64,000 nucleotides of DNA, from positions 1,472,001 to 1,536,000 of the forward strand of contig CAWDSK010000003.1 of the NCBI GenBank assembly GCA_963804995.1. The letters run 5' to 3'. Both the position numbers and the translations under genes were made by a program. This stretch comes from an uncultured Acidobacteriota bacterium. Its GTDB lineage: Bacteria > Acidobacteriota > Terriglobia > UBA7540. The notes under the pieces were generated by a model that worked only from the letters and a program-made list of their open reading frames with translations, had not been told where the DNA came from and searched no databases. This document shows positions 14,055 through 64,000 of the stretch, piece by piece (positions within the stretch are counted from its first letter, which is position 1; each line of letters begins with the position of its first letter).

Positions 14055-14441
14055 ATGGCGCTACCTAAGTTGACAAGACTGGAATTGCAGATCATGGAAG
14101 CCCTCTGGGATCGGGACCGGGCCTCGATCCGGGAGATTCAGGAAACATTTCCTGCCAACGATAGGCCCGCGTATACGACCGTACAGACCACCGTGTACCG
14201 CTTGGAAGCCAAAAAAGCGGTCCGCCGAGTCAGGAAGATCAGCAACGCACACATCTTTGAAGCCGTGGTATCGCGCAACGCAGCGCAACGCAGACTCATC
14301 GATGATCTGCTGGGATTGTTTGGCGGTCGGACACAGCCGATCATGGCGCACCTGATCGAATCCGGCAAGCTCACCCTCGACGATGTCCGGGAAGCGGAGA
14401 GATATCTCCGCGCACTTGCGAGGAAGGGCGAATCGCGATGA
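14055..14441 (+). CDS. BlaI/MecI/CopY-family repressor
   Basis: ELQIMEALW, PAYTTVQT and RLEAK motifs. Confidence 0.92.
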   Translation: MALPKLTRLELQIMEALWDRDRASIREIQETFPANDRPAYTTVQTTVYRLEAKKAVRRVRKISNAHIFEAVVSRNAAQRRLIDDLLGLFGGRTQPIMAHLIESGKLTLDDVREAERYLRALARKGESR

Positions 14442-16145
14442 TCAATGCACTCTCGTCGGTGACGTGGATGGTCCTGGGGCCCTTCGCCAACCATCTTTGG
14501 CAATCGACTCTTTGTGCTGTCGTGGCAGGTCTGGTGACCCTCGCACTAAGAAGCAACCGCGCCCAGGTTCGTTACTGGCTCTGGCTCATTGCAACCGTCA
14601 AGTTCCTAGTACCCTTTGCGTTGTTGATTTGGGTCGCCAGCCACCTGGCGTTCCGCTCCGCTCCCACAGTCCCGCAACCTGGCCTGTCCTTTGCGGTGCA
14701 AGAGATCACCCAACCTTTCGCCTCACCCGTTGCTCCATCCCCGGGTGCTCAATCCGCTCCCGACCAGGTCGCGGTTAATCCGATTCGGGCCCTTTTATTG
14801 GTTGTGTGGTTTTGTGGATGCGTCGCTGTCCTATTTAACTTGTGCGTGCGTTGGCGGCGGGTCAATACAGCGGTCAAAGCAAGTCTTCCATTGCAGGAAG
14901 GCCGTGAAGTCGAGGCCCTTCATCGTTTTCGTTCGACCGCCGGAATACAGAACAAAATCGACCTGCGGTCCTCTCCCGCACATTTGGAGCCTGGGGTCCT
15001 CGGAATCTGGCGACCAGTTTTGCTCCTGCCCGCAGGCATCTCAGAGCGCTTGGCGGATGACCAGTTGGAGGCAATTATCGGACACGAGGCCTGTCATGTC
15101 CGCCGTCGCGACAACTTGGCCTCAGCAGTTCAGATGGCAGTGGGAGCCATCTTCTGGTTCTACCCTTTAGTGTGGTGGATGGGAAGGCGTCTTATTGACG
15201 AACGAGAGCGTGCCTGCGACGAAGAGGTGTTGCGACTGGGCTGCAAACCGCAGGTATACGCTGAAAGCATCCTGCACGTCTGCAAGTACTACCTGGAGTC
15301 ACCCCTGGTCTGTGTGGCCGGGGTAACTGGCTCAGATCTTAAGAAGCGTATGGAGAGAATTATGAATCATCGTGTCCCGAAGAAGCTGGATTTTGCGCGA
15401 AAGCTATTGCTCGTTGCCGTCGGGACAGCACTGTTTGCCGTCGTGATGGCTTGTACTAACCAGTTCCGTGACGAGTTTTCTGGGAAGTTAAAACCGGGTT
15501 GGCAATGGATCGACCCCCGAGGCGATAGTTCGATGAGCCTGGACGCACGCGACGGATTCCTGCGAATCACAGTCACCGGTTATCACGATCTATGGCCGGC
15601 GAATCGCAACTTTAACGCCCCCAGACTAATGCGTAAGGTAGAGGGAGATTTCATAATAGAGACGAAGATAGCTGGCCCGAGCCGCTGGTGTGGGGGCCTT
15701 CTAGTGTGGAAAGATGAGAACAATTACGTGCGGTTTGATCGCGGGATTCATTTTAGGAACGAATTGAGCCTCGAGAGTGCTATCAATGGAAAGTTTAAGT
15801 CCCTGGCCCGCGATTATGCAGCCGGTGATCCTACGTGGTTGCGCGTGGCACGCAAGGGATCAACGTTCACAGCAGCCTACAGTTTTAATGGTGTCGAGTG
15901 GCTGCCGCTGAAACGCCTCTGGACCTTGTTTGGGTTTAAAAAACAGCCCCCGGCAGGTCGAGGACGGCCGGAGCATGTTAGCAGAGGAAGATCTCATCTT
16001 TGAGCCGGGTGTGAGTTCCACTGAAATGACTGCAGACGGTCCCCTCCTGGTCGGTGTCAGCGGGCTCGTCCCCGCGGTTGCCCCCCCGATAGGGCTGAAG
16101 CAGACGGTGACGGACTACGATTACTTCGCGATTCTCAAACCGTGA
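14438..16145 (+). CDS. BlaR1-like M56 peptidase with C-terminal ConA/DUF1349-like beta-sandwich; +1 frameshift near 15940
   Basis: NHLWQS, HEACH and ERERACDE motifs; the C-terminal domain continues in ORF 15930-16145 after an A run. Confidence 0.85.
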
Positions 16146-17097: not shown

Positions 17098-17224
17098 GCG
17101 AAGCCCGCTTTGGACTGCGGTAGCAGCAGCTACCGCTTTGCTTTCCACTCGCCTTGCACATTTGCCGTATGGACTGAAAGCGGAAGGCGGTAGCTGCTGC
17201 GACCGCAGTCCAAAGCGCTTCGCG
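17098..17224. repeat. REP-like palindrome (ttggactgcggt...accgcagtccaa)
   Basis: Long imperfect inverted repeat downstream of the operon. Confidence 0.75.
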
Positions 17225-17266
17225 CAGGTCCAGAGCAAAACGCGCGTTGAGTGAAAAGTAGGGGGC

Positions 17267-18076
17267 TCAGGGCTTGGCCAGCTTCTTCTCCAGTTGCCGG
17301 GCCTGGGCGTTAAGATCGCTCAACTGGCGAAGGTCATCGTCCGCCAGGGAGATGATGTTTTGGATGCGGGCCAAAGCCTCGCTGTTGAAGCCGCCGGGAT
17401 TCGGATTGCGGCTTGAATCCAGCATGCCGCTCATGGCGGTGAACTGACTGGTAATATCCCGATAGCGGCGCATGATCGAGGTCAAATAGACCTCGCGACG
17501 CTGATCCACGTCTTGCAGGCTCGAGGCCGCGCGGCGAAATTCAGCGGTGTGGTCAGAACCCTCCGGGTTTTCGCCCCGCAACTTGGCTCTCTCCGCCTCC
17601 AGAGCTGCCACGCGCTCCCGTGATGCCTGTACGTCAGCTTGCGCGGTGTCGAGTTCCTTTTGCAAGGCGTCGAGGCGGCCCTGCCAATCGGCTTGCAGCT
17701 TCCGATCATGCTCCTCGGCACTGGCAAGCGCCTTCGTGTGTTCTGCTGTAGAGGCAGCCAGTTGAGTTTGGAGCCCGGTAATCTCAGTACGTGCTTCGCC
17801 GAGGTCATTGGTGAGTTGTTGGATCGTAGCGTCACGCTTGGCGAGCATCGCGCCTTCATTACCATCCGGAGTCAGCGTTTCCGTCGATACGGGCGCCTGC
17901 TGAAGCTCGTGTTGCCGCAAGGTCTCCCGAAGCTCACCCAGGGATTTTGCATCCGCCTCGTGCTGACGCCGCAAGCTCGAGAGTTGTCGCCACTGAAAGA
18001 AGTCCACCCCCGCCGCACCCAACAGGGCAAGGGCCAGAACCAGGATAAGGTTGAGTTGCAATCGCCAGGGCCGCAT
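17267..18076 (-). CDS. Membrane-anchored long coiled-coil protein
   Basis: N-terminal hydrophobic helix followed by about 230 aa of heptad-like Q/E/L/R/A-rich sequence. Confidence 0.8.
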   Translation of the reverse strand: MRPWRLQLNLILVLALALLGAAGVDFFQWRQLSSLRRQHEADAKSLGELRETLRQHELQQAPVSTETLTPDGNEGAMLAKRDATIQQLTNDLGEARTEITGLQTQLAASTAEHTKALASAEEHDRKLQADWQGRLDALQKELDTAQADVQASRERVAALEAERAKLRGENPEGSDHTAEFRRAASSLQDVDQRREVYLTSIMRRYRDITSQFTAMSGMLDSSRNPNPGGFNSEALARIQNIISLADDDLRQLSDLNAQARQLEKKLAKP

Positions 18077-18080
18077 GGGC

Positions 18081-19019
18081 TTATCCTCCTTTCGGATGGA
18101 AGCGCGTACGCCAGGAGAGGCGCAGATCTGTGTCATGGCATGGAGCGCTTAAATGGATTTGGGCGTTGTAGAAAAGCTTGGGGGGCAGCTCCAGGGTTAC
18201 CCTCCAAGCGCTCGATATTCGCGCGAACGTGGCAGCGATCGCATCCGGAATTTCGCCCACGGACCGGCAGATGCTGGCTCTGCCGCCCGTAGCGTCAGCC
18301 AGCGTCTCCAGACCATTTTGGTAGATGAGGTTGAGGCGATCCTGCCGGTAATTGAGATGAACCACAAACAGTGGCGCCTCAAGCGAGCCCTCATCCTGCA
18401 CGAGCTTCGCGATCTTCTCCTGCACCAGCGACCCGGGAAAGCGCCGGCTGAGATCATGGGGATCACTCTGATTGATGACGGGATTCGTGTAGTCCTCACG
18501 ATACCTGTAGATACTGCCGTCGGTAACGTAGAGGACGGCGACGCGCACGGGAGCCTTGCGCAGTAGCGCGTCCGCAAGCGAAAGCGCCTCCGGCACGGTT
18601 TCCAGCAATCCCGGCTCACCATTATTGGGAAGAGCATGCAGGGCGTCGAGCAACGGCTGGCGATTCGCCCCGGGGTCGGCCAATACGTGCAGCCCATCCT
18701 GGTCACGCAGGAGGCCCACCCAGGCGTTCTGAGGCAACTTGGAGATTTGCGCAGTGACCGCTTGCTTGGCGGCATCGATCAGCGAAAGGTCACCCGTGAG
18801 GTCGAAGATCACCAGAATGATTTGATCGCTGGTTGGACCTAGCTGCTCCGTGACGGGCACCGCCTTGCCGTTCAAGGTGGCCTCGAACTTCGCCGCAGGC
18901 TCGCAATCATTTCCCTCCACCCAGGCCGGAATGGAAATACTGGCCGCTTGGGCGTAGACGGCGGTTGGCATGGAAAGCGCCAAGAGTAGAGCCGCGAGAA
19001 AGACACCGAAGCGAGACAT
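18081..19019 (-). CDS. Secreted VWA-like domain protein
   Basis: Signal peptide; ILVIFDLTGD, VLYVTDG and LETLADATGG (degenerate MIDAS). Confidence 0.75.
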   Translation of the reverse strand: MSRFGVFLAALLLALSMPTAVYAQAASISIPAWVEGNDCEPAAKFEATLNGKAVPVTEQLGPTSDQIILVIFDLTGDLSLIDAAKQAVTAQISKLPQNAWVGLLRDQDGLHVLADPGANRQPLLDALHALPNNGEPGLLETVPEALSLADALLRKAPVRVAVLYVTDGSIYRYREDYTNPVINQSDPHDLSRRFPGSLVQEKIAKLVQDEGSLEAPLFVVHLNYRQDRLNLIYQNGLETLADATGGRASICRSVGEIPDAIAATFARISSAWRVTLELPPKLFYNAQIHLSAPCHDTDLRLSWRTRFHPKGG

Positions 19020-21814
19020 TAGAAGCTGAACTTTAGCCCCAGTTGCACGACGCGTCCACCATGCGAGCCGATGATCTTGCCGGCATCAACGTTGGGTGCG
19101 TCAGCGGGGCCGATGTTGGGATCGGGATAGTTCCAGTTGCCGTGATTCAAAAAGTTGAAAGCTGTAGCCGTGAACTCCAGAGCGCGATCGCTTCCCATGC
19201 GCAGGCGCTTACCCAGGCTGACATCCATGGAATTGAAGCCTGGCCCTAACAGGTCAGGCTCCGTGCGGGGGCCGTTGCCCAGGGTGAAGTCAGGTGGCTG
19301 ATCGAAGGCCGCGGGGTTATACCACCCGGACGGCCCCGGACTTGCCACGTGCGGGTCGACACCCGGCACCACGTTGACGTTCAGGGTGGTCAGCACGCCT
19401 CCCGTGTTGTTGAATTCCGGATGCAGGCCCAGGGGTGTTCCGTCGTTCCAGTAAGCCGTGCCGCTCAGCGACCAGCCACTCAGCAGCGCTCCGCCCAGGC
19501 CGGGAAAATGGAGCCAGGGCTGGTCGGCGCCAAAGGGCAGCTCATAAATATAACTTAGTTGTAAATACTGAGGCGTGTTATACGACGTTAACGCCCAATC
19601 GTTACGAAAGTTGAGGAAATCCTGGTTCCCATAAGGTCCCGAATAGTCGTCGAGCTGCTTCGAGAATTCGTAGTAAGCCGTGAAGGTGAGCCCGAAAGAG
19701 GCGCGCTTCTCTAACCTGACAAAGCCGGAATCCCGCTGGTACCGGCCTGCCGGGTAGAGACCGTAAACGTCGAAACCCCAGAACTGCGGGTAGGGTTGCA
19801 GGGTTTCCCGGAAGGTTTGGGTATAGAGCGCGTCCCCGTAACTCAGGTTGCTGGGGTTGATGGCATTGGGGTTGGCGGCCGCGTTGCCCACCAGGGTGTC
19901 CCGGCCGTAGGTGTGGTGAGCCCCCGCCGAAACCACCAGGGAGAAGGGTATCTCACGCTCGACAGATAGCACCGCCGATTGATAGACGGGCTCCCGCTTC
20001 GACAAATCAATGAAATCCGCCGTCGTATTGTCGGCAGCCGAGGGGCTGAGATCCGGCAGCGGCATGCCCAGCGGCGGCAGGGGGGCCGCGAGGTTGAGCG
20101 CGGGACTGAGCTGAGTGTTCGGTGAGATGAAGGTTTGGCGGGCGTTAAAACCCTGCGTGCCCCACTGGCCGTCGTAAATTGGAACCTGGGTGTGCCAGCG
20201 GTCGAAGGAAGCCCGCACCACGGTTTTGGGATTGCCGCGGGGGTTCCAGGTGATTCCCACACTGGGGTCGAGATCGTAATTGGTAGGGCGCAACCCGCGA
20301 GAAATCCCGCCCACCCCAGCGAATACCAAGGCGCCGGGAAGCCCGTTCGAAGGGTCAATCACCACGGGATCGATGGTGCTTTGACGATTGTACTTCTCTA
20401 CCCGCGGTGTATGGAGATTGAAGGTAAGACTGGCGTTCACGATCAAGTTCTTCGAGAGCGCGTACTTGTCACCCATCGTAAGGGAATCATTGGAGTGACG
20501 AAAATAGGAGGGCGAGGTGATGAATGTGCGTTCCGCATAGGCCGGCAGGCCCAATAGAAAGCTTGCAAAGGGATATCCGGTGTCGATGATCCCCGGCAGG
20601 CTGGTGATATCCGCTGAGAATTGGAACTCGCCGGAGGGGTAGGCCGCATTGAACGAATTTACCGCGTAGTGAAAGAGTTCAGCCGTCAACCGCAAGGAGT
20701 GTTTGCCCTTTTGGGCCGACAGCTCGTCGCGAAGGTCGAGCCAAATATGGGCGTTGCGAGTGTCCGGATATCCCGTGCCCATGGAAAGATAGTCGCCGAG
20801 TTGATAATTTGGGAAGGCGGCTTGAGTATTGGCTCCCGACTGCACCACGCCGGAACTTGCCGTCAGGCTTACAGAGTTGACGGTCTTGGAGCTGGCTGTA
20901 TAAACGTAGTCGAGCTCCGTGCGCCACGTGGAAAAATGTTGTTCCGGCGCCGTGGGGCTCGCGAGGTTCGGAAAGTACTTGGCGGAGCTCAGAAAACCTC
21001 TGGAAATCGTGGTGAGCAAGGTCAGCCGGTGCCGGTCGCCAAAAGGATGGTCAAGCTTGGCAATGATTCCGTCCGCAGTGTCTAATTGCGGGGCATTGAC
21101 GAAGTAGTTGTTTTGAAAAAACGGCCCGATGTCGGTGTTGGGCGCAGGATAAAGGGATAAAGCCTGCTGGACGTTCGCGGCCAGGCGGGAGGACGGAATA
21201 ATGTTTCCGGGAAACTGCGAACGCAAGTACTGAAGGTTGGTCGTCGAGACCGCCTGGGTCGGATCGTAAGCCGGATTGGGAGTAGTCGCGTTCGGGTCAT
21301 AAATGGGCAGCGGCAGGCCGGCTTCGTCCACCGTTTGCGAGAAATCACCCTGGCGTTCCGCCATCGTGGGGACGGTGTGCAACGAGGCACGGAAGATACT
21401 TTCGCGGACGCCTTCGTAAGACACCATGAAGAAGGTGTTACCGGGTTTCGCCATCAGATGGGGGATGAAGAGGGGGCCGCCCACATTGAATCCGAATTGG
21501 TTGCGGCGTAGAGGAGAGTTGCTCTCGCCATTTTGCCTCACTTCGTGGGGAATGGCATCGAGCACATCGTTCCGGAAGTTTTCATAGAGGCGGCCGTGCC
21601 AAAGCATCTTCTTGGCGCGTTGTTGTTGTACAGAGGGAGGACTGTCAGGGCGCATCCCTAAATCGCGGGTCAGGACCTTGAATTCGCCAGCCGCTTCCGC
21701 CAGGGGGTCAGGCTGCTTGGTGAGAGAGGGGCCGCCGTCCAGCGCCGCCAGGGGCAACGCGACGGTGAGTACAGTGAGGGCCAGCCACCAAAACCATCGA
21801 ACCAAAGTTCTCAT
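19019..21814 (-). CDS. Oar-type outer-membrane beta-barrel lacking carboxypeptidase-like and plug domains
   Basis: HGRLYENFRND..RRNQFGFNVGGP barrel start only about 50 aa after the signal peptide; terminal RVVQLGLKFSF. Confidence 0.85.
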   Translation of the reverse strand: MRTLVRWFWWLALTVLTVALPLAALDGGPSLTKQPDPLAEAAGEFKVLTRDLGMRPDSPPSVQQQRAKKMLWHGRLYENFRNDVLDAIPHEVRQNGESNSPLRRNQFGFNVGGPLFIPHLMAKPGNTFFMVSYEGVRESIFRASLHTVPTMAERQGDFSQTVDEAGLPLPIYDPNATTPNPAYDPTQAVSTTNLQYLRSQFPGNIIPSSRLAANVQQALSLYPAPNTDIGPFFQNNYFVNAPQLDTADGIIAKLDHPFGDRHRLTLLTTISRGFLSSAKYFPNLASPTAPEQHFSTWRTELDYVYTASSKTVNSVSLTASSGVVQSGANTQAAFPNYQLGDYLSMGTGYPDTRNAHIWLDLRDELSAQKGKHSLRLTAELFHYAVNSFNAAYPSGEFQFSADITSLPGIIDTGYPFASFLLGLPAYAERTFITSPSYFRHSNDSLTMGDKYALSKNLIVNASLTFNLHTPRVEKYNRQSTIDPVVIDPSNGLPGALVFAGVGGISRGLRPTNYDLDPSVGITWNPRGNPKTVVRASFDRWHTQVPIYDGQWGTQGFNARQTFISPNTQLSPALNLAAPLPPLGMPLPDLSPSAADNTTADFIDLSKREPVYQSAVLSVEREIPFSLVVSAGAHHTYGRDTLVGNAAANPNAINPSNLSYGDALYTQTFRETLQPYPQFWGFDVYGLYPAGRYQRDSGFVRLEKRASFGLTFTAYYEFSKQLDDYSGPYGNQDFLNFRNDWALTSYNTPQYLQLSYIYELPFGADQPWLHFPGLGGALLSGWSLSGTAYWNDGTPLGLHPEFNNTGGVLTTLNVNVVPGVDPHVASPGPSGWYNPAAFDQPPDFTLGNGPRTEPDLLGPGFNSMDVSLGKRLRMGSDRALEFTATAFNFLNHGNWNYPDPNIGPADAPNVDAGKIIGSHGGRVVQLGLKFSF

Positions 21815-21951
21815 TTGGACTTCCAACCACCTCGAATATATACTTCGGCCCTTAACGTCGCAAGCTTTCGGAGAATACGGTAGTGGCGCCAGTACATTCC
21901 AGCACTCATTCGCATCGATAGTTTCTTCCCTATTCTTCCCCTAATTTTTAT

Positions 21952-56049: not shown

Positions 56050-59000
56050 ATGGACGGAACTGGAGTTCTTCTATCGACTGACTCAGAAGCTGGCGCGCTG
56101 GTCTTGCGTGGACCCAACCGGCCGGATTTACTTCGCGAGGAATGTCTCGCTGACATCCTGATGGCATCCGCGCGGCGTCGCCCCCATCACCCGGCGCTGG
56201 TCTGGCGCAAGCGAGTTGTCACTTACGTGGAGTTGGACGCGTCGAGCCAGGCAGTGGCAGGAGCGCTAGTCAACCGTGGGGCGGCCGCCGGCCAGATTTT
56301 GGGATTGTTCATGCCGCGCGGTGCGGATTTGCTGATCGCGCAAGCCGGCATCACTCGGAGCGGTGCAGCCTGGCTGCCCTTTGATGCTGAGGCGCCGCTG
56401 GCCAGAGTCAAGATATGTCTTGAATCCGCCCAAGCGTGCGGCATGGTAACTTGCCGCGCCTGGTTGCCGCGTCTGGCGGAATTATCCGTGCCCGTCTGGG
56501 CCATAGAAGACCTGCTGGCCGAGGGTGATTCCACCCTGCCCTGCGTGGGGGCGAAGCCTTCTGACCCCGCTTACGTGATTTACACTTCCGGATCGACGGG
56601 ACAGCCCAAAGGCATTGTCATCAGCCACCAGAGCATCTGCCATTTCCTCCGCAGCGAGAATGAACTCCTGGGAGTGGATGAAAACGACCTGGTCTATCAA
56701 GGATTTTCGCTAGCCTTCGACATGTCGTTCGAGGAAATCTGGATTGCCTACCTGGCCGGCGCAACTCTGTGGATTGCTCCCGCCTCGCTGGTGGGTGATC
56801 CCGATTTGCTGGCCGAGACCTTCAGGCGGGAGTGCATCACCGTGGTGCACGCCGTGCCCACGATGATGAGTTTGATCCTCGACCCGCTGCCCACGGTGCG
56901 GCTGATCAATCTGGGAGGTGAAGCCTGTCCCGATGCGCTGGCTGAACGATTGACGCGGCCGGGGCGGCGAGTGTTTAACACATACGGGCCGACGGAGACC
57001 ACCGTGTCCGCCACCCTGGTGGAGTTACAACCAGGCGAGCGTGTGACCATCGGCATGCCGCTCCCGAATTACGGCCTAATGGTCGTGGATGAACAGCGCC
57101 AACCCCTCCCGCCCGGAGAGATTGGGGAGTTAGGCATCATAGGGCCGGGCCTCGCCCTTGGCTACCTAGACCAGCCCGAGTTAACGGCCGAACGGTTTAT
57201 CCCCAATCCCCTCGCCACGGGTCCTGACGATGCGCGATTGTTCCTGACGGGCGATCTGGTGCGCATGGAACGCGGCGGTCCGGTCCATTGGTTGGGACGG
57301 GCGGACAATCAAGTAAAGATTCGTGGATACCGTGTCGAGTTGGATGAAATTGCCGCCGCTCTCGCCGCGCAGCCTGGCGTGGCCGCAGCGGCCGTAGTCT
57401 TACGCCCCTTGGCGGGCACGGACCAACTGGTGGGATTTATCGTCCCCGCCTCGGATTTCAAACCAGACCGGGCTGCACTGCGGCAGGCATTGGCTCCCCG
57501 TCTTCCCGCCTACATGGTACCGGCGCACCTGGAGGTCTTGGCTGAACTGCCCCGCCTGCCCTCCGGCAAGCCGGACTTGCACGCCCTCCGCGCTATGCCC
57601 CTTAACGGTAACGAACCCAGCGGACACGAGCGGGCGAAGCCACGCAACGAAGAAGAAGTGGCGTTGTACGCTGCACTGGCCAAGCTTTTTGCCCATCCTC
57701 TGCTCCACCCGGACGCGGATTTCTTTGATGACCTGGGCGGACACTCCTTGCTGGCGGCGCGGTTGGTATCGATCCTTCGCACGGATACGCGCTACGCAAC
57801 CCTGAGTGTGCAAGATGTCTATCGCGAACGTCAGTTAGGCAAGATCGCTGCGGCCATGGAGCGACAACGCCGGCGCGCCCCCCAAGCCCTCGGGCCGGAG
57901 CGTACCGAAGTCCCCTGGCAGCGGCGCCTGGTATGCGGGATGGCGCAGTCCGTGGTAATTCCTTTCTTCGTTTTATTTCACATGGCCGACTGGCTGGGTC
58001 CGTTCTTTGTCTATCACTATTTCACGGGCAGTGAAGGCGACAGTATTCCGCTCGCAGTGTTGTACTCACTTTCCACCTTCCTGCTGGCGCGACTCCTGAC
58101 CTTCGGGATAGCCATCACCGGCAAATGGCTGGTGGCAGAACATTTGCCTGCCGGCCGATATCCATTGTGGGGGGTTACGTATTTTCGCTGGTGGCTGGCG
58201 AACAAGTTCTGCGAATTGCCAGATGTCTATTTGCTCGCCGCCAGTCCCTGGATGCCCTTGTACCTGCGCGCTCTGGGCGCGCGCATTGGACCGAACGTGA
58301 TGATTGATGCCATCACTCTGGGCGCGCCGGAACTGCTGACCGTTGAAGAGGGGGTCAGCATCGGCACTTTTGTGAACATCGAGAACGCCCGTGTTGAGGG
58401 CGGCATGCTGATCATTGGCCCGGTACATCTCGGCCGGGATTCAGTAGTCGATTCGTATGCCGTGCTTGAGAACGACACGAAACTCGGAGAGCGGGCGCGC
58501 CTGGGCGGGCAATCGGCACTGACCGCGGGGCGACGGATTCCCGATGATGAAACCTGGGAGGGTGCTCCGGCACGACCGGTCGATCGTCCCAAGGAAGTAT
58601 TGCCCCCGCGCCCACAGGTTGGAGTCATGAAACGGTGGGGGATGGCAGGCGTCTTTGCGGTAACAGCGATCGTGGTATCGGTGTTGTTCTTCCTCCCCAC
58701 CTTCCCAGCCTTCATGTTGATTGACTGGATGGACGCTCACACTTGGGATGTTTTCGAATCGAACCTCAGCCCGCTCACCGCTTTCGGAATATTTTTCATG
58801 ATGTCAATTCCCGCCAGCGCCTTATTTGTGTCCGCGACCATGCTCATAACCGCGGGCCTGCGCTGGCTCTTGCCGCGTCAAGTCCCCGGACTTTCCTCCG
58901 TGCAGAGTGTGGCCTTTTGGCGCAAGAAGCTCATGACCATGGTTCAGGACAGCAGCCTCAGTGCTCTGCATGGACTCTACGCCTCGGTCTATGCGCCCCT

Positions 59001-60054
59001 GTGGCTGCGCTTCCTGGGCGCCAAGGTCGGGCGGCACGCGGAAATCTCCACCGCTGAGGGTATCGTGCCCGAACTGCTCGTCCTGGGTGACGACAGTTTT
59101 ATTGCGGATGGCGCGATGTTGGGCGACGAGGAGCAGTACGGGGGCTGGATGGTTTTGAAACCCACGAAAGTCGGCCATCGTTCTTTTGTCGGCAATGGCG
59201 CTTATGTTCCTGACGGCACCACTCTGCCCGACGACGTCCTGATCGGTGTGCAAACCCGCACGCCCTCCAACGATCAGCTCAAATCCGGCCAGACCTGGAT
59301 GGGCTCACCGCCCATGCTCCTGCCCGCGCGCGAGCGTCTGACCGGTTTCGACGCCTCACTTACCTTCCGGCCCTCCCTCCTCCGCCGCTGGGGGCGCGGA
59401 CTCGTGGAGGGTTTGCGTATTGTGCTGCCGCTGGCGTTCGTGATTGCCAGCGGTTATCTAATCATCATCTTGGTGATGCCCCTGGCCGAGGACAAGGGGT
59501 GGGGGATCAAAGTGGCGATTGCACTCTCCATTGCCGGCTACCTGTTCGGGTTCGGATCTTTCCTGCTGGTGGTGGCGCTCAAATGGATTCTCATCGGGCG
59601 TTACCGCCCGCGCGCGGCCCCCATGTGGACACCCTTCGTCTGGATCAGCGAAGCGGTTACCAATCTATATGAATCTCTCGCCGTCCCGAATTTCCTGAAC
59701 CTCCTGCGCGGCACTCCCCTGCTGCCCTGGGCGCTACGCCTGCTCGGGGTGCGGATTGGCAAAGGCGTCTACATGAATACCACGGACTTTACCGAATTCG
59801 ATTGCGTGCGGATCGGTGACGAAGCGGAACTTAACGCTTGGTCCGGACCCCAAACGCACCTGTTTGAAGACCGCATCATGAAAATCGGGATGGTTGAGAT
59901 TGGCGCCCAGGTGACAGTGGGCGCACGCGGCATCATCCTGTACGACACCCAGGTAGGTGACCGAGTGCGTCTGGGCCCGATGACCTTGGTGGCTAAGGGA
60001 GAACGCCTGCCCGCCGATACCCGCTGGGAAGGTTCACCCGCCGTGCCGGCTTGA
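56050..60054 (+). CDS. Pls/PosA-type membrane NRPS (A-T-transmembrane/C1-C3 beta-helix)
   Basis: YTSGSTGQPKG, YGPTE, TGD, GGHSLL; three RxLGAxIG-type repeats with TM helices; QTHLFEDR. Confidence 0.93.
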   Translation: MDGTGVLLSTDSEAGALVLRGPNRPDLLREECLADILMASARRRPHHPALVWRKRVVTYVELDASSQAVAGALVNRGAAAGQILGLFMPRGADLLIAQAGITRSGAAWLPFDAEAPLARVKICLESAQACGMVTCRAWLPRLAELSVPVWAIEDLLAEGDSTLPCVGAKPSDPAYVIYTSGSTGQPKGIVISHQSICHFLRSENELLGVDENDLVYQGFSLAFDMSFEEIWIAYLAGATLWIAPASLVGDPDLLAETFRRECITVVHAVPTMMSLILDPLPTVRLINLGGEACPDALAERLTRPGRRVFNTYGPTETTVSATLVELQPGERVTIGMPLPNYGLMVVDEQRQPLPPGEIGELGIIGPGLALGYLDQPELTAERFIPNPLATGPDDARLFLTGDLVRMERGGPVHWLGRADNQVKIRGYRVELDEIAAALAAQPGVAAAAVVLRPLAGTDQLVGFIVPASDFKPDRAALRQALAPRLPAYMVPAHLEVLAELPRLPSGKPDLHALRAMPLNGNEPSGHERAKPRNEEEVALYAALAKLFAHPLLHPDADFFDDLGGHSLLAARLVSILRTDTRYATLSVQDVYRERQLGKIAAAMERQRRRAPQALGPERTEVPWQRRLVCGMAQSVVIPFFVLFHMADWLGPFFVYHYFTGSEGDSIPLAVLYSLSTFLLARLLTFGIAITGKWLVAEHLPAGRYPLWGVTYFRWWLANKFCELPDVYLLAASPWMPLYLRALGARIGPNVMIDAITLGAPELLTVEEGVSIGTFVNIENARVEGGMLIIGPVHLGRDSVVDSYAVLENDTKLGERARLGGQSALTAGRRIPDDETWEGAPARPVDRPKEVLPPRPQVGVMKRWGMAGVFAVTAIVVSVLFFLPTFPAFMLIDWMDAHTWDVFESNLSPLTAFGIFFMMSIPASALFVSATMLITAGLRWLLPRQVPGLSSVQSVAFWRKKLMTMVQDSSLSALHGLYASVYAPLWLRFLGAKVGRHAEISTAEGIVPELLVLGDDSFIADGAMLGDEEQYGGWMVLKPTKVGHRSFVGNGAYVPDGTTLPDDVLIGVQTRTPSNDQLKSGQTWMGSPPMLLPARERLTGFDASLTFRPSLLRRWGRGLVEGLRIVLPLAFVIASGYLIIILVMPLAEDKGWGIKVAIALSIAGYLFGFGSFLLVVALKWILIGRYRPRAAPMWTPFVWISEAVTNLYESLAVPNFLNLLRGTPLLPWALRLLGVRIGKGVYMNTTDFTEFDCVRIGDEAELNAWSGPQTHLFEDRIMKIGMVEIGAQVTVGARGIILYDTQVGDRVRLGPMTLVAKGERLPADTRWEGSPAVPA

Positions 60055-60066
60055 GGAGGAGCAAGG

Positions 60067-60654
60067 ATGCCCATCGCCGTTACCACCCGGATCTCGAATT
60101 GGCCGCAGACACCTTTGTTGCCGTCACCCGGCCAAGCGGTGCTGGTCCGCGTGAAGACAGCGCCCTCGCGAACGATCGCACGGCAGGAACTGCGAACCGT
60201 CCTGCGCGAAGTGCTGGCGAAGTGGAGCGATCTCGCCCCTGACCAACTGCCTCTCGAAGAGTCACGGCGGGGGCCGGTTTGGCTCGGCCAACTCGCCGGG
60301 CAGACTCTGGACATCAGCCTGGCTTACCACGAGCAAGAAGGTTGGATCGGCCTGTTGCGGGGTGGGTGGATTGGTGTCGACGTCATGCGGGCCGAACTCG
60401 TAGCCGAAGCGAACGACGTAGCACGCCACTACCTGGGTCCTGCGGCCATGGCATCCCTGCAACAATCAACTGACCCCACGCTCGCCTTCGCTGTGGCTTG
60501 GACGGAACTGGAAGCGCAGCTCAAATGCCTGCGACTTGAATTAGTTGAACGGCCTGCCGGGCAAACGCTTGCGGCAACCCCGTGCACCCTCGATAGCATC
60601 TTCCTTCCTGAGCGTTTGGTGGTGACTGTGGCAACCCATTCTCCTTTGGCGTGA
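60067..60654 (+). CDS. 4'-phosphopantetheinyl transferase (Sfp-like)
   Basis: IGVDV and WTELEAQLKC motifs; 12 bp downstream of the NRPS. Confidence 0.8.
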   Translation: MPIAVTTRISNWPQTPLLPSPGQAVLVRVKTAPSRTIARQELRTVLREVLAKWSDLAPDQLPLEESRRGPVWLGQLAGQTLDISLAYHEQEGWIGLLRGGWIGVDVMRAELVAEANDVARHYLGPAAMASLQQSTDPTLAFAVAWTELEAQLKCLRLELVERPAGQTLAATPCTLDSIFLPERLVVTVATHSPLA

Positions 60655-61615: not shown

Positions 61616-64000
61616 ATGATGAGTTACTCGATTCGACGCGCTTTGCCATGCCTAATAATTTTCGTCGGCGTAGGCTGCATGCTGGCCCATGCCCAGACCT
61701 TTCAGGGCAGTTTCACGGGCACCATCACGGATCCCATGGGGGCTGTTATCCCTGGCACTGCCCTGACCATTGTGGAAGTAGATAAGGGATTTTCCCGCAG
61801 CGCGGTCACAGGAAATGACGGTAGTTTTGAGATCCCCCTCTTGCCGCCGGGAAGATATCGCCTGACGGCCCAGAAGCAGGGCTTTGAAAAGACGGCCCGC
61901 GGCCCCCTGACCCTCCTGGTGAACCAGCACCTGCGAGTAGACATTTCTCTCAAGATCGGCCCCCAGGCAACGACCGTCACGGTCGAGGCATCACCTGCCA
62001 CGGTCGAGAGCCAGACCTCCTCCGTAGGAACCACCATCGACGAGCAGAAGGTGACTGAGGTCCCCCTGAATGGCCGGAATTTTCTGGAGCTGGCGTTGCT
62101 CGTCCCCGGCGTATCCCCCGGGACGGCGGGCTCCCATATCAGCTCCCGGGGTGGCGCCATCAACGTGAATGGGATGCGCGACTCGATGAACTCCTATTGG
62201 CTGGACGGCCTGGATGACACCTCGGTGGGCGTTGGCCAATACACCGTCGCCCCGCCGCTCGACTCCGTGCAGGAGTTCCGCATGGAGACGGGAGTATACG
62301 AGGCCAAATTCGGCGCCCACGCCGGGGCCGAAGTCAACATGGTGACCAAGTCAGGAACCAACGATTTACACGGCAGCGTCTATGAGTTCGCCCGCAATAC
62401 GGATTTTGACGCCCGCAACTTTTTTGACCCCTCGGTAGCGCCCATGCACCGCAACCAGTTTGGCGGGACGCTGGGGGGGCCCATCGTGCTCCCCGGTGTT
62501 TATGACGGACACGACCGCACGTTTTTCTTTTTCGCTTACGAAGGCACGCGTGAGCACCGCGACTTCTACGACAACTTCCTCGTCCCCAGCATGGCCGAAC
62601 GCCAGGGCCACTTCACGGATCTCCTGAACCCCAACTGTTCCAGCCAGACCCTGCTTCTCAATCCCCTGGGCGGAGGACAACCTTTCACCAACATCAATCA
62701 AGTCCTGCTGCAGGCGGACCCCGTGGGGCAAGCCCTGGTCAATCAGTACCCCGAGCCCAACATTCCGACCGCCACGTGCGGCGCGGCCAACTACCAGGCG
62801 CTGGTCAACCGGCAGGTCACCTACGACACCATGACGGGACGGGTCGACCATCAGTTCAACAGCAAGGATTCCGTGTTCTTCCGCTACAATCTGAACTTTG
62901 ATTGCGAGTTCTGGCCCACGGGCACAGTTCCGGAACTCACCACGACGATTCCGGGATATGGCCGCTTCTCTCACGATTCCTATCAGATGGGGGGCGTCGA
63001 TTGGACCCACATCTTCAACCCCAAGCTGGTCAACGAGGTCAAGCTTGGTTATAACCGCTGGCAAATCCGAGAGGTTGACCAGGATTTGGGGAGCACCTTG
63101 GCCTCAAGCCTGGGGATCATGGGCGTCGCGAACATCGGCTCGGTTCCCGCCGGCGTCCCCAACATGAACTTTTCGGGATACGCCAACCTGGGAGCCGACG
63201 AAACCACCCCCCAAAGTGGCGCGGTGAATACCTTCCAAATCGGCGACACGCTGACGCAAGTGCTGGGGTCACATACGATGACCTATGGCGCCGATATTCG
63301 CGAAGTCCGGCGCGGGAATTTTTCCGTCGACACCATCTCCCGGGGAGAATTTGATTTTACCGGATTCCTGACGGGCGGCCTGGGCCAGGTCTCGGCAGCA
63401 CAACTGGGCTGCCCCACCTGCACGCTCGGTAACAGCGTCGCGGATGCGTTGCTGGGCCTTCCCCAATACTGGCTGAACGGATTCCAGGAGTACATCTCCG
63501 GCCAATTTGGTGAATACGACTTCTTCGTCCAGGATGATTGGCGGGTTCGCCCCCATCTGACCGTCAACCTCGGCTTGCGTTACGAGTACAAGAGCCTAGT
63601 CACGGAAGGGTCGAACGGCTTTTCCAACTTCGATTTCAGCAACGGAGACTTGATAGTGGCCGGGAATAAGGCGGCAACCCTGTGGAGCTTTAACCCCAGC
63701 ATCAATCCGCTTACCGGCCAGTGGCAAATCAGCCCGGCGCCTTGCACGTCTCAAACTTGCAGCCAGCAAACGATCAATCTGGGAAGCACGGCAAGCAACC
63801 GCTCGCTGCAGAAGCCCGACCGCAACAATTTTGCGCCGCGCGTGGGGATAGCCTGGCAACCCTTTAAGAGCTCCAAAACCGTGCTGCGCGCCGGCTACGG
63901 GGTGTTCTACGATCAGACCTTCGGCGATGTCTATTTCCAGAAGGCTGCCAACCCACCCTTCGTTCAACTGAAGGAAGGCAACTCTCCCGCCGTGCTCGAA
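61616..64000 (+). CDS. Oar-type TonB-dependent receptor (3' part outside window)
   Basis: Manual translation: signal peptide, GTITDPMGA, VPLNGRNFLEL plug, VQEFRMET, LHGSVYEFARN, RNQFGGTLGGP. Confidence 0.9.
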   Translation, partial: MMSYSIRRALPCLIIFVGVGCMLAHAQTFQGSFTGTITDPMGAVIPGTALTIVEVDKGFSRSAVTGNDGSFEIPLLPPGRYRLTAQKQGFEKTARGPLTLLVNQHLRVDISLKIGPQATTVTVEASPATVESQTSSVGTTIDEQKVTEVPLNGRNFLELALLVPGVSPGTAGSHISSRGGAINVNGMRDSMNSYWLDGLDDTSVGVGQYTVAPPLDSVQEFRMETGVYEAKFGAHAGAEVNMVTKSGTNDLHGSVYEFARNTDFDARNFFDPSVAPMHRNQFGGTLGGPIVLPGVYDGHDRTFFFFAYEGTREHRDFYDNFLVPSMAERQGHFTDLLNPNCSSQTLLLNPLGGGQPFTNINQVLLQADPVGQALVNQYPEPNIPTATCGAANYQALVNRQVTYDTMTGRVDHQFNSKDSVFFRYNLNFDCEFWPTGTVPELTTTIPGYGRFSHDSYQMGGVDWTHIFNPKLVNEVKLGYNRWQIREVDQDLGSTLASSLGIMGVANIGSVPAGVPNMNFSGYANLGADETTPQSGAVNTFQIGDTLTQVLGSHTMTYGADIREVRRGNFSVDTISRGEFDFTGFLTGGLGQVSAAQLGCPTCTLGNSVADALLGLPQYWLNGFQEYISGQFGEYDFFVQDDWRVRPHLTVNLGLRYEYKSLVTEGSNGFSNFDFSNGDLIVAGNKAATLWSFNPSINPLTGQWQISPAPCTSQTCSQQTINLGSTASNRSLQKPDRNNFAPRVGIAWQPFKSSKTVLRAGYGVFYDQTFGDVYFQKAANPPFVQLKEGNSPAVLE

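Follow-up and report, generated by a model that had tools for sequence, protein, structure and literature searches.

TonB-dependent transporters are barrels whose plug and TonB box define how they are sealed and energised. In the Oar subclass, known from Myxococcus xanthus, a 22-strand barrel of family PF25183 carries a CarboxypepD_reg extension, a plug and a TonB box, and the export of PopC by Oar requires both the plug and the TonB box (PMC6434023). M. xanthus Oar without its extension and plug does not accumulate (PMC6434023), so a natural plug-less version would likely need a replacement. Here we describe such a version, found in a window of 64,000 nt (the whole stretch of DNA that was analysed, to which all window coordinates refer) on contig CAWDSK010000003.1 of an uncultured Acidobacteriota bacterium, UBA7540. 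Three genes on the minus strand, hereafter the operon, encode a barrel descended from plugged Oar members, a VWA protein and a coiled-coil protein:

19019..21814, minus strand: plug-less Oar-type 22-strand outer-membrane barrel, 931 residues, with a C-terminal Phe (PF25183, model, fold matches).
18081..19019, minus strand: secreted VWA protein, 312 residues, with the VWA core (62-271) within a small beta-sandwich, an apparently non-canonical metal-ion-dependent adhesion site (MIDAS) and no lipobox (Pfam, model, folds).
17267..18076, minus strand: membrane-anchored coiled-coil protein, 269 residues, the optional third member (generic coiled-coil matches, distribution).

The genes are tightly coupled, as the original prediction for this DNA had noticed: barrel and VWA genes share a TAATG overlap at 19019, and VWA and coiled-coil genes are separated by 4 nt (GCCC, 18077-18080), with an AGGAGG inside the last VWA codons. 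Compared with the Oar subclass (PMC6434023), the barrel lacks the CarboxypepD_reg extension, the plug, the TonB box and an adjacent tonB/exbBD, and has a fixed VWA partner. A search of the literature outside subscription papers and supplements, where an Acidobacteria proteome table could list these proteins, found no account of the operon; PMC3174227, in its accessible part, lists VWA and TonB paralogue families only. The barrel thus belongs to a real, widespread and apparently undescribed derivative of the Oar transporters.

In LptD-LptE and in SprA-Plug of the type IX secretion system, a large barrel is shut by a separately encoded protein. Their barrels and plug folds are unrelated to those of the operon, LptD being matched by fold at Z 15.1 with a root-mean-square deviation (rmsd) of 7.1. 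The Type S lidless plug-reduced fructan importers of Bacteroides likewise are barrels like those of TonB-dependent transporters without an annotated plug; however, they are small barrels beside genes for carbohydrate-active enzymes (CAZymes) and have a small internal plug-like feature (bioRxiv 10.1101/2025.11.13.688124), whereas the present 930-residue barrel has large loops, a dedicated VWA partner and no conserved CAZyme neighbours, and does not lie in a CAZyme cluster. CglB, which acts with GltA/B/H, is also a VWA protein functionally tied to outer-membrane barrels, but it is a lipoprotein that works with small OmpA-like barrels and a proton motor drive (10.1101/2020.07.22.216333), none of which is found in the operon. 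The inner-membrane vWA force transducers of TolQ-like motors share the periplasmic VWA and the trans-envelope setting; they are membrane-tethered and encoded in motor operons (PMC12204202), whereas the VWA protein here is free and secreted, and neither a motor gene nor tonB/exbBD adjoins its gene. The acidobacterial VWFA family TIGR03436 has the same overall architecture, yet the VWA protein matches its profile weakly, at 16 bits (E 0.0065) against a curated cut-off of 81.25, and has a family-specific invariant loop of its own.

The loss of the plug from the barrel is clear. Pfam finds PF25183 alone (residues 72-924), with neither Plug nor CarboxypepD_reg, whereas the receptor at 61616 in the same window, which the original prediction had set beside it as an ordinary, plugged Oar protein, has CarboxypepD_reg at 68.6 bits and Plug at a sub-cut-off 16 bits. 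Because Pfam Plug is insensitive for the Oar-type family, a plug-only profile was built from 73 plugged relatives; it gives the barrel 3-4 bits, against 121.6 bits for the 61616 receptor and 40-125 bits for intact paralogues in the same genome. The TonB box is absent because the plug and extension region that carries it is deleted. What remains ahead of the barrel is short, H73 of the first barrel motif, HGRLYENFRN, lying about 49 residues past the cleavage of the signal that probably follows A24, as judged by eye, in agreement with the 50 or so first counted:

21743..21814, minus strand: probable Sec signal peptide, barrel residues 1-24 (sequence read by eye).
21662..21706, minus strand: N-terminal stub helix of the barrel (residues 37-51), what is left of the last plug motif as judged by alignment, model and plug profile.

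The barrel itself is predicted to be intact. An AlphaFold2 model from a 92-row alignment has a mean predicted local distance difference test (pLDDT) score of 91 and 22 strands as counted from DSSP, and its top fold matches are all barrels of TonB-dependent transporters (Z about 22); a sequence search of solved structures gave no significant match for barrel or VWA protein. The stub is modelled with low confidence (pLDDT 49-57) as one helix, in line with the short, probably helical peptide first described, but it is not new sequence. The helix is conserved and amphipathic (A41 in 61/62 and an aromatic residue at 45 in 62/62 sequences), the residues preceding it are unconserved, and it lines up with the plug's final motif, where A41 is found in 52% and F45 in 84% of plugged relatives. 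Nine of 12 stubs (one protein counted twice) map to plug-profile positions ~83-104, each with a non-significant score. To judge from these alignments, the stub is a remnant of the last plug motif. Conserved strand positions of plugged Oar relatives, many of them charged, are lost in the clade (R322, K375, R381, Q448, D450, R464, R518, R882, E884), as is expected where plug contacts are gone, provided that these residues face the lumen, as they probably do.

Could the short N-terminus be an artefact, that is, a recent deletion, a pseudogene or a misassembly? Three other Oar genes of this assembly are indeed frameshifted (G000:C3:644099-646939, C6:1977737-1980754 and C6:877501-880644); seemingly plug-less themselves, they were rejected as such since their plugs lie in another frame, whether through real frameshifts or assembly error. 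Against an artefact stand independent, intact homologues in their hundreds, which share the short N-terminus and reach down to about 40% identity, and we count this explanation as refuted, its probability being negligible. The N-terminal 176 residues of the barrel match 768 proteins among 1353 candidates; all of the best 120 of these 768 have PF25183 only, and 109 of the 120 are 900-1000 residues long. The closest homologues are plug-less, not plugged: in a library of 50% clusters, the 20 best rows hold plug-less members or fragments of these, and plugged relatives begin at 271 bits, against 891 bits. Over 802 barrel columns, a FastTree phylogeny places 32 plug-less barrels in a single clade (support 1.0, stem 0.54), set among 73 plugged barrels, and the sister group of this clade (support 0.986) is plugged; the tree leaves aside rows with >35% gaps as well as two thirds of the nearest relatives, and its root is arbitrary. 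The plug-less form spans Acidobacteriota, with named homologue records from Terriglobia, Bryobacteraceae, Solibacteraceae, Blastocatellia and Terriglobales, and an Atlas search matched Acidobacteriota clusters only. On this phylogenetic evidence, the plug loss is best read as ancient and under selection.

Two further barrel arrangements were seen along the way. In genus g215, the gene just upstream of the operon encodes another Oar-like barrel that has an extension and a short, diverged plug region (L099 3739-6645, L101 12374-15325), the one at L099 scoring 20.8 bits on the plug profile. G493 (L093 5357-11735, L094 1-1294) has two tandem plug-less barrel copies; its VWA gene lies on another contig, which starts with the end of a barrel gene just ahead of it, and no coiled-coil gene was found.

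The loss of a plug beside a VWA gene is not confined to this operon. Among the 47 Oar-type barrel open reading frames of the genome, only the barrel of the operon and C6:1952132-1955554 lack a plug, the three frameshifted genes apart, and both are followed by a VWA gene. In the second pair (G000:C6:1949827-1955554; L162), the VWA protein has 764 residues and belongs to TIGR03436, and this is the one locus of that family, among 18 in the genome, which adjoins an Oar barrel. The second barrel keeps its extension, and a Gly-rich linker with a short conserved motif replaces the plug. It is plug-less in all 23 loci whose N-terminus is covered (25 were fetched) and falls outside the plug-less clade described above; of 61 genomes in the order, the same 51 have both it and its VWA gene. 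Two independent plug losses, each with a VWA partner, are the strongest argument for a functional swap, to which plugged barrel-VWA pairs in genomes G035 and G051, described below, are the counter-example.

The VWA protein has a Pfam VWA_2 match of 27.2 bits and a model with pLDDT 84, in which the VWA core lies inside a small beta-sandwich; its Rossmann-like fold is supported by 4fx5 (Z 18.9, rmsd 2.5, 178 residues aligned), and the best fold matches, which are tied, include pilus-tip VWA domains. The signal looks cleavable and a lipobox is absent (2/62 chance-like matches). In the MIDAS, both Asp are present in 62/62 sequences, position 75 is T, V, A or S, position 77 is Asp in 52/62, and the Thr is absent. 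The conspicuous part of the protein is a loop:

18438..18503, minus strand: invariant VWA loop that follows the second MIDAS Asp (residues 173-194), a candidate element for binding the barrel or replacing the plug (alignment, model).

Residues N183, D186, D189, S191 and R192 are invariant in 62/62 partners of plug-less barrels, and a regular expression for the loop motif matched 59/62; in the model of the VWA protein alone, confidence is lowest at this loop (pLDDT 57-73). We propose that the Oar-derived 22-strand barrel, having lost plug and TonB box, would be a pore that works without TonB, and that the secreted VWA protein would bind it through this loop, sit at or in its lumen and replace the plug in trans as a separately made gate and stabiliser; the membrane-anchored coiled coil, where present, would tether the pair across the periplasm without energising it. 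That the VWA protein binds the barrel and replaces its plug is a tentative reading, to which we give slightly less than an even chance. In the looser form of the original prediction, a VWA protein acting as plug or adaptor, the idea seems likely from the invariant loop, the second pair and a weak complex score.

The loop of 17-20 residues is missing from 4/4 distant relatives of the VWA protein in G035 and G051, which counts in favour of this reading; two of the four, the nearest relatives found, follow fully plugged barrels behind a GWxTD gene, and two have no barrel. Several points weigh against plug replacement by the VWA protein. Since related VWA genes also follow plugged barrels, a VWA neighbour alone does not mean plug replacement. 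The plugged barrels of these genomes do not group as sister to the plug-less clade, and so a plugged barrel-VWA pair of this kind was rejected as the direct ancestor, as far as the barrel is concerned. The two operons consist of a GWxTD-domain gene, a plugged Oar barrel gene and a VWA gene (L035 6152-12124, L036 944-8116). Complex prediction with barrel residues 36-931 and a 104-residue VWA fragment (134-237) gave a score of 0.44, against 0.00 for the best of three controls, which lends the complex weak support; runs agree in at least 90% of contacts, with a partner pLDDT of 50-55. The pass mark was reached by 116/157 solved pairs and 2/215 mismatched pairs, and passes at 0.60 or under comprise 18 of the solved pairs and both mismatches. 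The score sits where passes are more often wrong than right, it concerns a fragment of the VWA protein, and no interface was returned. Covariation between the chains over 62 paired rows (effective number 35) did not recover intra-chain contacts and is uninformative, and a search for long fused VWA forms, covering 644-2000 residues only, found none among 7998 candidates, which is weak evidence. Furthermore, plug-less barrels can be viable open importers without a partner.

A further point against a periplasmic plug substitute comes from the barrel surface. When the plug-less clade is compared with the 73 plugged relatives, clade-specific conserved positions number 42 of 478 in extracellular loops, 12 of 319 in strands, 1 of 61 in periplasmic turns and 0 of 37 in the stub, and they concentrate in extracellular loops 1, 2, 5, 10 and 11. 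This pattern would fit an outer-face partner, a ligand or a loop lid better than periplasmic docking, and VWA action at the outer face may be considered. The VWA protein could then be the barrel's own cargo, passing through it or held on top as a surface lid or adhesin in the manner of SusD or CglB, with the coiled coil anchoring the platform to the inner membrane. Besides the conserved loops, this would agree with the export of a 50-kDa protein by Oar (PMC11658791, PMC6434023), with the VWA adhesin of M. xanthus whose surface exposure depends on barrels (10.1101/2020.07.22.216333) and with the pilus-tip VWA matches, and the weak complex pass is silent on which side the VWA protein sits. However, the VWA protein has neither a lipobox nor another anchor, Oar export requires the plug and TonB box that are missing here (PMC6434023), the fold matches are ones that any VWA domain would give, and the binding face of an adhesin would be expected to vary, whereas the VWA face is invariant. 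We regard surface display of this kind as unlikely.

The same conserved loops, together with the conserved, amphipathic stub helix, could instead serve a passive channel for small solutes, open or self-gated and shut by its own loops or stub, with VWA protein and coiled coil as periplasmic accessories such as a binding protein or assembly factor. In Bacteroides there are natural plug-reduced importers, and a plug-less SusC mutant is functional and viable (bioRxiv 10.1101/2025.11.13.688124), so the premise of the original prediction that such receptors need a plug is not absolute. Yet a helix of 15 residues is too small for a lumen of 35-40 A (size from PMC6434023), the operon is single copy, and clustered flanking open reading frames at the loci examined, named by eye and not all by Pfam, include no conserved sugar-enzyme, CAZyme, ABC or regulator neighbours. 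Such a channel would also leave the two VWA-paired plug losses unexplained, and we think it distinctly unlikely. As to what a VWA-gated pore would carry, export or surface delivery appears somewhat more likely, at about an even chance, because of the single copy and the lack of conserved catabolic neighbours; nutrient import is possible and no transport at all the least probable.

The distribution of the genes shows which of them belong together. At 16 loci found through the VWA gene, the barrel gene is upstream in 15 (one contig starts too late) and the coiled-coil gene downstream in 13 (one contig ends, two have no such gene). Among 137 genomes of the order, 67 have all three genes, 67 have none and three fragmented assemblies (G395, G312, G331) have partial sets; where present, the genes are nearly always single copy. 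Because these genomes are kin, the count is not 137 independent tests. A sample of the class has the VWA gene in 94/400 genomes: 29/30 in family f103, 29/72 in f5, 32/73 in f1, 4/7 in f108, and none in f2 (76), f3 (78) or f104 (33). Forty further loci, chosen for diversity from VWA-positive genomes of this sample, have a plug-less barrel directly upstream of the VWA gene in 39 cases, the fortieth lying at a contig end. The coiled-coil gene follows in 20/20 f5 loci, against 0/20 f103/f108 loci; profile searches did not find it in the barrel-VWA genomes G016, G251, G270, G494 and G493, nor convincingly in G744 and G792, while a wider profile was positive in 3/3 control genomes. The operon core is barrel plus VWA protein, and the coiled coil is optional. 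The genes stay linked without forming an obligatory trio. Of the two outcomes that the original prediction had named as refuting it, closest homologues all with a normal plug and a trio not kept in other genomes, neither was seen.

At the loci examined, no flanking gene is conserved beyond single families. The operon lies back to back with lpxD in 10 loci (L029 3282-4394 and nine others of f5 type) and between ATP synthase and ribosomal-protein genes in five f103 loci (L113, L114, L122, L149, L152). Such housekeeping surroundings, with single-copy, all-or-none inheritance and about 140 coiled-coil residues that could span the periplasm, would suit a non-transporting strut that ties the outer to the inner membrane, the barrel being merely an anchor. 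We hold a strut to be very improbable, as the spanning protein is missing from whole lineages that keep barrel and VWA protein, all three genes are missing from half of the order's genomes, and the extracellular loops are the most constrained part of the barrel.

The coiled-coil protein combines a single hydrophobic anchor with some 140 residues of coiled coil and a C-terminal part that is Arg-rich and conserved:

17996..18058, minus strand: the one hydrophobic anchor, at the N-terminus, residues 7-27 (without conserved His/Ser; lipobox instead in 2/50 aligned homologues).
17279..17518, minus strand: conserved Arg-rich C-terminal helical pair, residues 187-266 (helices from sequence pattern).

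Library searches gave generic coiled-coil matches only, and PF27241 is a precomputed annotation on many homologues. For a membrane-fusion or needle-type periplasmic adaptor (HlyD, PqiB), whose oligomeric tube would dock on the outer-membrane channel, the matches stayed generic and below threshold. TonB/TolA-like transducers have a conserved His/Ser motif in their membrane helix (PMC12204202); here there is no conserved polar residue in the anchor, and Pfam and NCBIfam give no match to a TonB or TolA C-terminal domain. In L136 and L137, the two exceptional homologues, a lipoprotein signal replaces the anchor, which places the rod outside the cytoplasm and suggests that the anchor only tethers. 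Absent from several lineages and lipid-anchored in two genomes, the coiled coil would be an optional tether and not a TonB-like motor arm. Homology to a coiled-coil protein of f103 found no support, as the profile comparison aligned generic coiled coil only and the C-terminal parts matched no better than a reversed control. This f103 protein has a pair of hydrophobic segments at the N-terminus, a coiled coil and, at the C-terminus, a helical part that is conserved, and it has no Pfam match; its gene lies convergent behind the VWA gene in six loci (L116-L120, L151) and elsewhere in 4/5 other f103 genomes (L153-L156).

The observation behind the original prediction is thus confirmed, and its interpretation is partly supported; export or envelope tethering in place of import is a putative role. 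Taken further, it is possible, though doubtful, that in Acidobacteria Oar barrels have turned at least twice into a two-part TonB-independent pore, with the VWA protein as plug and, in this lineage, the coiled coil gripping it from the inner membrane, as a new trans-envelope class of export or gating. A widespread lineage that drops plug and TonB box while keeping a fixed VWA partner, together with a second case, points to a general alternative gating principle; if true, this would be an undescribed, TonB-free way of gating a large outer-membrane pore and a first testable role for the large unexplained VWA families of acidobacteria. The two-gene core should be easy to express and solve, and a stable 22-strand barrel that is hollow by nature would be attractive as a nanopore scaffold.

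Minor features of the window complete the picture. A promoter scan gave 3 sigma-70-like sites against 1.8 +/- 1.4 expected, which is not above chance, and a terminator scan gave nothing above chance level; one promoter-like site is listed here:

21835..21863, minus strand: weak sigma-70-like promoter match upstream of the barrel gene (not above chance).

Directly downstream of the coiled-coil gene lies a long imperfect inverted repeat (17100-17225), similar to repetitive extragenic palindromes or to a terminator. At 14055-16003, a BlaI/CopY-type repressor gene accompanies one for a BlaR1/M56 protein to which a concanavalin-like (DUF1349) domain is fused. Finally, positions 56050-60654 encode a 1334-residue protein that combines an adenylation domain, a carrier and a hexapeptide-repeat membrane protein, followed by a phosphopantetheinyl transferase.

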